The position numbers and the translations under genes were made by a program. DNA of 64,000 bases from Eledone cirrhosa (taxonomy: Eukaryota): NCBI GenBank assembly GCA_964016885.1, contig OZ024741.1, positions 212,288,001 to 212,352,000 of the forward strand, in the 5' to 3' direction. Position 1 is the stretch's first letter; every line of letters begins with the position of its first letter. Positions 18,178 through 21,286 of the stretch are shown here, piece after piece. The notes under the pieces are model-generated. The model searched no databases. It worked only from the letters and a program-made list of their open reading frames with translations, and was not told where the DNA came from.

Positions 18178-18893
18178 CCCTTCTCCCCCTCACTTTCGTT
18201 TTTTTCTCTCTTCCTCTCTCTCTATCCATCCGTTCGGTTTTGATTGTTGATATGTTTACACGTGCCGTGGTAGCCTCTCTGTCCGCAATCTTTGCGGCAC
18301 GTTTTTACCACCGTCGTAAAAAAACCCTTCTGGATTATCTCCCTTTCCCTTCTCCTCCTACTCACTTGTGGTTGCCCGTGTCTCTCTCTCACTTTCTCCT
18401 CTCTATGCGAGAGGCAGCATGATTATACCAGCTCTGAGTCGTATCTGACCGCCAGGCTAATGTCTCCCAGGTTGGCCACAACTTACTTTCCCTATTTTTC
18501 CAAGGTTACCTTTTTGCATCTTTCTTTCACCTGTGTCTTCCCACGATGGGATCTGCACACTTTTTTCTTATATTCCTTTCATATGTTTGCCCTTCTTCCT
18601 CTCTCCTCATCTTTCCCCCCATGTTCTTCCTCCTTTCCCTCTCTTTCCTTTTCTCTCTCCCTTTTTTTCTCTCTTTCTCTCTCCTTTTCCACCTGGCCTT
18701 TTGATTAATAAAAGGCCTCGGGCGCATCCGAACTACACCGATGTCCTGTAATTCAGCGCCGAAACATCGGTTCGGGATACATTTACAGCTGACGATGGAA
18801 ACACCTTTCTTCCTTTCTCCTCCTGTTCCGTCCTAACCACTTTCTAAACCTTGTTTCTAGTAATCACACAGATCCTTTCGTTTCATAACTTTA
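18178..18893 (+). mobile_element. ORF-less pyrimidine-rich element in (TA)n carrying a permuted HHR (family P1)
   Basis: TA runs at both ends; HHR motif at 18737-18798 followed by a tail of about 95 nt, the layout seen in PLE pLTRs. Confidence 0.55.
18737..18798 (+). ncRNA. Candidate non-circularly permuted hammerhead ribozyme
   Basis: accgatGT-C-ctgtaa / ttcagcgcc / GAAAcatcggt / tcgggatacat / ttacag-CTGACGA-tgg. Stem III is 8 bp (18737-44 with 18764-71) and stem I is 6 bp (18746-51 with 18783-88). Confidence 0.65.
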
Positions 18894-20370
18894 TATATAT
18901 ATATATACTTAGGTTAATAGGAGTTAGGTATTGTATACCTGTGTCCCATTAAGGTATTGGCAGCATAATAATTAGCTCTATGCTTTGGAGCAGAGCCGTA
19001 TATATGAAAAAGAATATATGTATATATGTATATTGTATGCATTCGTATTATATTGTGTGTATGTGTATATGTGACATGTATGTGAATATATGTATGTATG
19101 CGTATGAGTGTGTATGTGTAAGTGTATGATGTGTGTATGTGTATATGTATGTATACTTTTCTGTAGAAATTCTCTCTATATGTGGTGTGTGGCACGAATT
19201 CCTCCTATGATACTCTTCTCTGAGAGGAGCACAATATGCAGAGTAACACATATGTATTGTCGAAGTTGAAACTGAGAACCACCACCCCTCCTGCTGACCC
19301 AAATGTTTACTGAGGACCAGAACACCATTCTCCGCAATATAAGAGCGAAATGCGCTTGCCGGCCTATTGATGACCATAACATCACATTCCAAGGTAAATT
19401 TTTATTAAAAATATACAACCACTGACACTGTTACGAAGACCAGAAAACCATACTCCATAATATCGAACCAAGTGATTGATTTGTGCGACCAAAATAACAC
19501 CAAACACATATTGAACTAGGAATATTGGATCCTCCGTCAATGTCCGGGTGAGCAAAAATAGAGTTCTATCTGCATTGGAATTTACGAACTTGTGCATCTG
19601 CTGTGGTGTCAAAAACAAACGAACATGACCGCACAAATAAACAATGGACCATGCCACATGGCTTGAACCCGTAAGTGAATTGAAGGTTCTGCAACTCTGA
19701 TACACAGATTATTTATTATTAAGATGTATAAACTTGACATAACTATTATCATCTTATATTCTCTCAACTAATCACACTTGATCATATTTCTCTATCCCGT
19801 TTTCTCCCCCCATAATTATTATATTTTTATTATTATTTGAAAAAATCGTTTTTTTTACATTGTGTTTTCCCCTCCAAATATTCGCTTATATTTCTTTATA
19901 TATTCTCTATCTATTTTTTTATCTTTATTTTTTTATCTTTATTATTTCCACTTTTATCCTCCTTTATATTTCACCTTATTCTTACTTTTATACCTTATTA
20001 TATTGTAATCTTCCCCATGCCTTATTATACACTATTAATTATAGATTATTATTATTACTCTTTTTCCATTTCTAATTACCTCATGTACTTTCTCCTCCGC
20101 TATATATATATATATATATATTGTATGCCCTTTGTGTTTGTGTAGCCTCTGCGCACCCTCTGCACCATACTATCGACGCCACCCCATCTATGGTTCAGCT
20201 AACCACCCGACTCCCGGGAATGAATATGACCGCAGCTAGTAAACAAGGACCCACACCCCACCCTCCCGCACCAAAATTAGACTTATCGTCCCCTACTTTT
20301 GCTCTTTACTCTCTTTACTCTTTGTTCTTGAATGTTTGGTTGGTAGAGTCCATAACACAAATCAAACCCC

Positions 20371-20430
20371 TTTTATAGCTCTGACGAATCCTACGGTTAC
20401 GTAAGGAAGAAACATTGTAAGCCAATAAAA
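20371..20430 (+). ncRNA. Type I hammerhead ribozyme motif (PLE pLTR remnant, tail to (TA)n at about 20470)
   Basis: ttttatagct-CTGACGA-atcctacg gtta cgtaagga-a-GAAAC-att-GTA-agccaataaaa. Confidence 0.7.
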
Positions 20431-20711
20431 ATCTTTTGATGTTGTAGACGCTCTTGTGTTCTTTTTCATATATATATATATATTTCGGTATTGAGTACTC
20501 CTTTCTCTCAGCCGTTAACCACATACTGATATATATATAACAAATATAGCTAAAAGTTTCACTATTGCAGCACACGCACACACACACACACACACACACA
20601 CACACACACACACACACACACACACACACACACACACACACACACACACACACACACACACACACACATATATATGTATATATATATATATATGTGTATA
20701 TATATAACCAG

Positions 20712-20770
20712 AGGTATATGATTTTTAAAGCGGTGAAATACTTATGAAGGTTGGAAGATCACTGACGAAG
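20712..20770 (+). ncRNA. Candidate non-circularly permuted hammerhead ribozyme
   Basis: aggtAT-A-tgatttt / taaagcggt / GAAAtactt / atgaaggttgg / aagatca-CTGACGA. Confidence 0.6.
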
Positions 20771-21226
20771 GAGTAATTTTATTCATATGTAACCCATGTG
20801 TTACCACGCACCACTCCATTTTTCTTATATTTATATTTTTTCCTCAGCTGCGATTGTCTGTTTCTTTCTTACTGCTTCCCCTCTCTCTGTATCTCTCACC
20901 TTCTTTTTACCCCCTCTGCCAGTCACACTCTCTCTCAGCTGGCCTTTTCCTCGCACTTCCACTCACTCACTCTCTGCTTCTCCTCCTCTCTCACTTCCTC
21001 CCGTTTGACCTGTGTGAAATCCTTTTCTCGCTCACATCTCACCCATATCGGATGGTCTGTATCTCTCGTCCATGATTTCACCAAGCTTAAGCTTATAGAT
21101 ATCATGTACTTGTCTATTCCTATCTTTCCGTTGCAATACCATCTTTGTTTGTTTACATGTCTCGCTCGCTTCACCCTATTTTACTTGTCCCAATAACTTT
21201 ATTTAGTTATTGCTCGCACCAACCAG

Positions 21227-21286
21227 AGATATATGATTTTTAAAGCGATGAAATACCTATGAAAGTTGGAAGATCACTGATGAAGG
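21227..21286 (+). ncRNA. Candidate non-circularly permuted hammerhead ribozyme
   Basis: agatAT-A-tgatttt / taaagcgat / GAAAtacct / atgaaagttgg / aagatca-CTGATGA. Confidence 0.55.

Follow-up and report, generated by a model that had tools for sequence, protein, structure and literature searches.

A window of 64,000 nucleotides from the Eledone cirrhosa genome (assembly GCA_964016885.1, contig OZ024741.1, positions 212,288,001 to 212,352,000) contains short motifs that carry the conserved letters of the hammerhead ribozyme in a permuted order with little sign of a stem II, raising the question of what completes the fold and what kind of element carries it. We conclude, with a probability of about 0.7, that these motifs are hammerhead cores in the block order cleavage site (S), GAAA (G), CUGANGA (C), that their stem II is split and built into a predicted four-way junction, and that they likely confer self-cleavage on the RNA of short retrozyme-like repeats that encode nothing and probably descend from Naiads, which are Penelope-like elements (PLEs).

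Hammerhead motifs in the window

Four motifs were located, at 18737, 20712 and 21227 on the plus strand and in the region of 49389 on the minus strand, the same four that had been named in an earlier note made from the letters of this sequence alone. The pattern AGCGNNGAAAN16-26CTGANGA matched the window four times as compared to 0.01 times expected, and four matches were reached in 0 of 100 shuffles. A descriptor running from stem III, UH and stem I through GAAA to CUGANGA detected two to four motifs depending on stringency, with shuffle means of 0.00-0.02. The CUGANGA and GAAA core was present in 4 of 4 copies, these letters also being part of the search patterns. Linkers of 9 nt and 11 nt and the triplets GUC (motif P1, 18737) and AUA (motif P2, the others) were as the note had described them. 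The P2 stems it quoted were a composite, with UGAUCUU occurring only in the 49.3-kb copy. The conserved unit, which takes in another three helices on the upstream side, measures about 110 nt and not the roughly 60 nt given there. No hammerhead family was found by Rfam among the 150 of 257 window matches listed, nor in two motif regions, a result that says little because Rfam also missed a core in type I order at 25506.

The P1 motif (family A) belongs to an element at 18176-18901 (+; fetched locus L061, 1297-2022) made up of a 795-nt non-coding tandem unit, truncated at its 5' end, and 157 nt that follow the predicted cut. The P2 element (family B; 20706-21351, +) has two ribozyme copies that enclose a single non-coding unit of 515 nt, with a further 118 nt. 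Both are flanked by (TA)n. On the minus strand, 49271-49851 is occupied by a third element, which belongs to a B-type subfamily and shares 83% identity with P2.

A predicted stem II formed with an upstream strand

Read 5' to 3', the conserved unit consists of strand Z, hairpin H, strands X and Y, stem III, UH, stem I, 3-4 nt and NGCGNN, followed by GAAA, stem III', Y', stem I', CUGANGA and Z'. In P1 (plus strand) Z (UUUCCA, 18686-18691) is predicted from sequence and covariation to pair with the tail UGGAAA at 18796-18801, and hairpin H (18692-18720) pairs GGCCUUUU at 18695-18702 with AAAAGGCC at 18710-18717. Strand X (GGCGC, 18721-18725) is predicted to form stem II with GCGCC at 18756-18760, its first G pairing with C11.1, and Y (18727-18732) pairs with 18771-18776 as the counterpart of the helix 'I' that joins stems I and II in Eckert et al. 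Block S (18737-18751) holds the stem III 5' strand, GUC with a predicted cut after C18745, and the stem I strand CUGUAA. Block G (18755-18771) contains AGCGCC, GAAA at 18761-18764 and the stem III 3' strand, and block C (18783-18801) the stem I strand UUACAG, CUGACGA at 18789-18795 and the tail Z'.

The complete P2 copy (21187-21288, +) is laid out in the same way, with Z at 21187-21190, H at 21191-21212, X at 21214-21217, Y at 21219-21224, stem III at 21227-21232, A17 at 21233, stem I at 21234-21240, GCGA at 21245-21248, GAAA at 21250-21253, CUGAUGA at 21277-21283 and Z' at 21285-21288. Its stem III contains one A.C mismatch. The other P2 copy (20706-20773, +; predicted cut after A20718) is 5'-truncated at about 20706 and has lost the upstream half, that is Z, H, X and most of Y. 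Given the mismatch in the one and the loss in the other, these copies may be impaired. The B-type ribozyme on the minus strand (49334-49435) is complete, with a covaried hairpin H (CAACG:UGUUG side) and a predicted cut after A49389.

The almost absent stem II of the note holds for pairing with the downstream tail only. Even in the better register, no more than 2 bp of this canonical stem II could form in any of the 16 A-type representatives or in 20 of the 21 of B/C type. It does not hold once the upstream strand is considered, since X pairs over 4-6 bp in 19 of 21 B/C and 16 of 16 A representatives. AGCG, which had been proposed to replace stem II or the contact between stems I and II, is by this pairing the 3' strand of stem II itself; its partner is the upstream CGC strand and the fourth pair covaries (UA 14, AU 6). 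The I-II contact is predicted to be supplied by the separate helix Y:Y', which links the two stems at their distal ends and is irregular in family A. Nor is AGCG invariant, its first letter being A in 10, T in 9 and C in 2 of the 21 B/C representatives.

Covariation was assessed in 21 B/C representatives, which stand for 20 of 23 clusters with the 21227 copy added (alignment A1, which leaves out the 5'-truncated L189 and L040 and L054 with a tail deletion). L029 was excluded from this set and from the family A set alike. Predicted pairs were formed in 88.4% of cells as compared to 31-47% when the strands were slid, and double-sided change was present in 18 of 31 pairs, a number matched in 0 of 500 shuffles. 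It was found in H (4 of 7 pairs), X (1 of 4), Y (5 of 6), stem III (2 of 6) and stem I (5 of 7). Helix Z:Z' had at least 4 bp in 17 of the 21 and was 92.9% paired versus at most 67.9% slid. In the family A set (16 sequences) 83.9% of cells were paired and 7 of 32 pairs changed on both sides.

The usual identity of the first stem II pair in hammerheads is G10.1-C11.1. The first G of X pairs C11.1 in 16 of 16 family A sequences, so that this identity is predicted to be supplied there by another strand. In family B the junction lies one pair further out. The A15.1-U16.1 pair appears as U-A in 19 of 21 B/C and 13 of 16 A sequences and in 18 of 18 of the coral-type family described below. The UH site between stems III and I is kept, and G is absent at N17 throughout the B/C and coral-type sets. 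Because the tail Z' pairs Z after A9, the core, Z:Z', H and X:GCGNN are predicted to meet in one four-way junction at A9/G12.

Copy number and families across the genome

The pattern CGCN24-40GCGNNGAAAN20-26CTGANGA gave 15,512 matches in the 3.0-Gb genome, some of them overlapping, versus 1 in the reversed control. Fetched loci yielded 139 distinct copies that fell into 38 clusters at 90% similarity, bearing out the expectation that further families exist. Within these loci (L001-L217) there were 184 GCG...CUGANGA matches, 119 with an S block, and 109 of the latter had an upstream helix of at least 4 bp. The best 40 matches were 94-97% identical to the window P2 and 90-94% to P1. Units were arranged in tandem at 470-795 nt in 30 of 34 strands with several motifs, the remainder being wider spaced, with one ribozyme per unit (515 nt in P2, 795 nt in P1), and no conserved open reading frame (ORF) was seen in the repeat units. 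Among the 100 of 801 matches listed in a search for abundant families without GCG, most were 5'-truncated copies.

The AGCG pattern also picked up chance matches. The L029 match lies antisense in a PLE reverse transcriptase (RT), and L091-L099 had no S block by eye. One repeat family (L007, L016, L017, L021, L028 and L110) carries the AGCG pattern with no S block by eye and has inverted copies in L007 and L110; in three loci it lies in antisense orientation close to fragments of PLE ORFs. Near position 1500 of L001/L002 two 5'-truncated family A copies stand head to head, each truncated immediately upstream of AGCG.

P1 and P2 had been taken for unrelated families. This does not hold, as the two agree in their entire architecture and both contain a further motif, AACYACRCAGC...GCTGYG. 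This motif follows CUGANGA by 30-67 nt in families A, B and C, which are therefore divergent relatives.

A coral-type family

A short motif of the coral form was scanned over metagenome contigs, giving at least 120 stretches, and the 80 examined contained 82 matches, 28 with the upstream half. Of these 28 upstream-complete copies 10 were left out for short flanks or indels, leaving 18 in alignment A3. The coral-type set reproduces the six helices, each of them spelled in different letters, and the first G of X again pairs C11.1 as in family A. Over 51 pairs 92.8% of cells were paired as compared to 27-45% when slid, and Y:Y' was 95.6% paired. GGAGCC stands in the place of AGCG in 14 of 18. Canonical stem II was 0 bp in 18 of 18, leaving X as the sole stem II on offer. 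One metagenome contig (L400) has an ORF that terminates 347 nt before GAAA and whose end looks, by eye, like the C-terminus of a Naiad RT. A contig with a chance match (L449, 1-2943, +) holds a 981-aa open frame similar to a family B DNA polymerase.

Comparison with known hammerheads

The order S-G-C is none of the three circular permutations. It was published as type SGC by Eckert et al. 2023 (PMC10085705), who found that SGC ribozymes cleave in vitro; their SGC RNAs came from metatranscriptomes, with none found in the genomes of known organisms. Like type SGC (HRIMA-1 and variants), the Eledone cirrhosa repeats have an intact core in this block order, about 3 nt between stem I and the strand of stem II, and a helix that connects stems I and II. 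They differ in being genomic, animal and present about 15,000-fold, and in that two further helices (Z:Z' and H) enter at A9/G12. In SGC ribozymes the strands of stem II and helix 'I' directly follow CUGANGA, whereas both lie upstream of block S in the repeats, so that X then Y mirrors stem II then helix 'I' of SGC-1, shifted from the 3' to the 5' side. The uninterrupted block C of type SGC (stem I, CUGANGA, stem II) is not found in the repeats. Eckert et al. treated this block as indivisible in deriving six topologies, an assumption broken by an upstream stem II strand, and if our reading is correct it adds a hammerhead topology beyond those six. The repeats also resemble type CSG (two metagenomic sequences in the same paper) in the cyclic order C-S-G and in the connection of stem II, helix I and stem III. 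CSG, however, opens between G and C with stem II unbroken, and the Eledone form opens inside stem II.

These comparisons bear on a simpler explanation, that the repeats are plain SGC ribozymes with a canonical stem II of 1-2 bp and that Z, H and X are accessory or even inhibitory, for example in the circle. Natural stem II may be as short as 1-2 bp (PMC3088659), 13 of the 16 family A sequences can form GG:CC once an extra base is allowed, as in the descriptor core of Eckert et al., and 10.1-11.1 covaries (AU, UA, UG, CG) in 13 of 21 B/C sequences. However, 0 of 150 distinct copies passed the published SGC core-plus-stem-II descriptor, which also demands CUGAUGA(U)G and CGAAA. The 18 coral-type sequences lack any canonical stem II pair, as does Naiad_EuTe by eye, and X runs into Y just as SGC stem II runs into helix 'I'. 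We therefore consider a minimal stem II unlikely and prefer the split stem II, with the repeats likely working like an SGC hammerhead yet falling, by their sequence, outside strict type SGC and outside type I retrozymes.

Animal non-LTR (long terminal repeat) retrozymes (PMC7229834; bioRxiv 10.64898/2026.07.22.740005) are likewise PLE-linked non-coding tandems in which each unit bears one hammerhead, and they number thousands of dispersed copies. They are defined, and have been searched for, through type I hammerheads, and their units are mostly 170-400 nt, in contrast to the pseudoknotted permuted core in S-G-C order and the 470-795-nt units seen here. Canonical PLEs carry minimal, dimer-cleaving type I hammerheads (Cervera 2014; Lunse 2017; via PMC6765202) that have in common with the repeats the PLE context, short stems and, in some, an extra base after CUGANGA. 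Being of type I, these are circular permutations, and their stem III loop is palindromic; no such loop was noticed in the repeats. In the accessible parts of a mostly open-access literature, type SGC appears in one paper only and no permuted hammerhead is assigned to Naiads, retrozymes or animal genomes; the portions available of PMC13725137, PMC10162972, PMC3088659 and PMC6765202 do not describe a split stem II. The distinct subclass on PLE-dependent elements that the earlier note proposed agrees with these results, which show its permutation to be non-circular.

If this is true, non-circular RNA permutations pass from a metatranscriptome rarity to high-copy animal genomes, and it becomes clear why a whole retrozyme class escaped type I descriptors. 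Ribozyme switches and the production of circular RNA would also gain a new scaffold in a hammerhead with its cargo hung from stem II.

Relation to Naiads and candidate mobilisers

Craig et al. 2021 (PMC8557442) described Naiads as lacking a canonical hammerhead and flagged eight as 'HHR_half_core'. By eye, the same six helices as in the repeats are present near the 3' end of Naiad_Ovul and the preceding entry in File S5 of that paper (X ACACC:GGUGU). They are likewise present at the 3' end of Naiad_EuTe, with X GACGCC:GGCGUC and Z GGGG:CCCC, where no canonical stem II pair was seen by eye. Three Acropora Naiads show the same architecture with X GGCUCC:GGAGCC, and the loop of octopus Naiad hairpin H also occurs in some B/C subfamilies. 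Other File S5 entries did not show the six-helix fold by eye within the passages that were accessible. The repeats resemble Naiads further in their partial tandems, inverted 5'-truncated copies and (TA)n targets, and differ in encoding nothing where Naiads encode GIY-YIG and RT. Together these data suggest that the ancestry of the repeats is likely Naiad. A fold of this kind in Naiads, if confirmed, would account for their having been scored as hammerhead-free.

At least five nematode Naiad 3' ends in File S5 read by eye as complete type CSG, with stem II and helix I covarying, as compared to the two CSG sequences available to Eckert et al. Loci L206, L211 and L213 (near 1500) hold rare decayed SGC-like copies by eye, with GGUG for GCG before GAAA; they resemble the octopus Naiad form, and no Naiad ORF adjoins them. 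An X pattern like that of the octopus Naiad gave 17 matches in the genome versus 18 in the control, these three copies being among the matches.

A broader proposal, towards which we lean only slightly, is that non-circularly permuted hammerheads are the standard Naiad ribozyme across animal phyla, as plain CSG in nematodes and in a hitherto undescribed form with split stem II and four-way junction in corals, crustaceans and cephalopods. The latter form would be active and would have seeded, in the Eledone cirrhosa genome, a superfamily of about 15,000 circular-RNA retrozymes that outlived their Naiad parent and borrow the enzyme of another PLE.

Candidate mobilisers of the young copies are two PLEs with ORFs of 1217 aa and 713 aa. 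The 3' end of the first, a very young PLE with an Asn-rich insert in its full 1217-aa ORF, lies in the window at 24689-25231 (+). In 150 of 150 scored matches its protein was 100% identical, it forms 4117-bp tandems, and its 3' untranslated region contains the type-I-order hammerhead core at window 25506 (+). No CUGANGA was found downstream of the 713-aa ORF in 3 of 3 full-ORF copies, and neither PLE has sequence in common with the repeat units. Pfam gave 0 matches for five PLE proteins, which we take to be of Neptune-like and Hydra-like clades. Fragments of compact PLEs are found at window 36505-37053, 40622-41332 and 243-617 (+) and in loci L182-L184.

3' ends and mode of insertion

Insertions were 5'-truncated partial tandems sitting in (TA)n, some with an inverted truncated copy, and TATA was present at 64 of 66 3' junctions. 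The 3' ends were fixed, at unit position 157 in 21 of 32 family A insertions and at position 118 in 22 of 34 family B insertions with 6 more at position 73. Fixed 3' ends, 5' truncation, partial tandems or inversions and a microsatellite target are the features of a PLE-mobilised element; partial tandems with inverted 5'-truncated copies are the PLE pattern in PMC8557442. The second RNA element (P2, 20802-20852, +) has its AACYACRCAGC-like part at 20802-20812 and GCUGCG at 20847-20852, which are predicted to form a hairpin. The motif was present in 22 of 29 internal copies, the full 6-bp hairpin in 12 of 29, and the hairpin covaries (CGCAGC:GCUGCG versus CACAGC:GCUGUG). The main insertion 3' terminus lies inside the 31-35-nt U/A-rich loop of this predicted hairpin. 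Internal initiation of reverse transcription has been demonstrated for another PLE (PMC11167929).

Proposed mechanism and alternative explanations

We propose that transcription runs through a tandem array and that the RNA folds into a double-pseudoknot core in which X would act as stem II, Y as the brace between stems I and II and Z:Z' as the exit through which the remainder of the element is attached. Cleavage after UH would likely release monomers of 470-795 nt that would then be ligated to circles. A PLE enzyme acting in trans would likely carry out target-primed reverse transcription at (TA)n, starting inside the 3' hairpin loop and leaving tandem and truncated copies as its product.

A number of observations weigh against this reading. 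CGC:GCG was required by the collecting pattern, so only the fourth X pair and change across families count as covariation in X. Double-sided change was weak in family A (reached in 23 of 500 shuffles) and not significant in the coral-type set (5 pairs, 324 of 500 shuffles), and since representatives are related by descent the shuffle tests are inflated throughout. Only 13 of 21 B/C sequences pair 10.1-11.1. Nested folding was weak (z -0.3 to -2.4), a method that cannot show pseudoknots; H came out in 4 of 5 cases and Z in 3. As for Naiad descent, the L400 peptide did not match local Naiad remnants (best E 0.23), a parsable ribozyme was present in 0 of 20 extended remnants, and a PLE protein match lay upstream of only 5 of 167 motifs, at three loci with three different PLE types. 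A Naiad RT motif had 0 exact matches in the Eledone cirrhosa genome, where Naiads persist as 127 matches with a median identity of 74% between RT stretches, in contrast to the 90-97% identity of the retrozyme copies. Such decay agrees with the description of cephalopod Naiads as remnants by Craig et al. (PMC8557442) and conflicts with recent mobilisation by Naiads. Finally, the hammerhead of one Poseidon PLE was dispensable for insertion in vitro (PMC11167929).

The Poseidon result also favours a second explanation, that the fold is real but catalysis is lost or weak and the structure is kept for recognition by the PLE RT or a host protein, and PLE hammerheads are slow in vitro according to the review PMC6765202. 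Against this, families in which every helix has changed still retain CUGANGA, GAAA and A15.1-U16.1 and avoid G at N17, the core letters having belonged to the search patterns and the UH site not. We regard loss of catalysis as doubtful, no more probable than a minimal stem II. Less probable still is a third explanation, in which the helices form between tandem units or between molecules, block C pairing with the next S and G in a CSG-like or dimeric arrangement. Copies are often tandem, PLE hammerheads are reported to cleave as dimers (PMC6765202) and covariation is blind to pairing within as compared to between units. However, the strands are all confined to about 110 nt and separated by short conserved linkers, a single copy is found in many insertions and in the Naiad consensus ends, and the palindromic loop of the dimer-cleaving kind was not noticed. 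An accidental likeness in two repeats is refuted: short motifs do match randomly, as in 92 viral-contig stretches, but the S block was present in 0 of 80 viral matches examined (from 80 of those stretches) versus 119 of 184 in the genome loci, and the genome count against its control and the B/C covariation argue the same way. Self-cleavage by the split-stem-II core thus remains the reading we prefer.

Other features of the window

Just 5' of the P1 element lies a direct repeat of about 160 bp with 78% identity (17754-17914 and 17925-18083). On the minus strand at 9765-10921 there are broken reverse transcriptase fragments, which we take to be of the long interspersed nuclear element (LINE) type.

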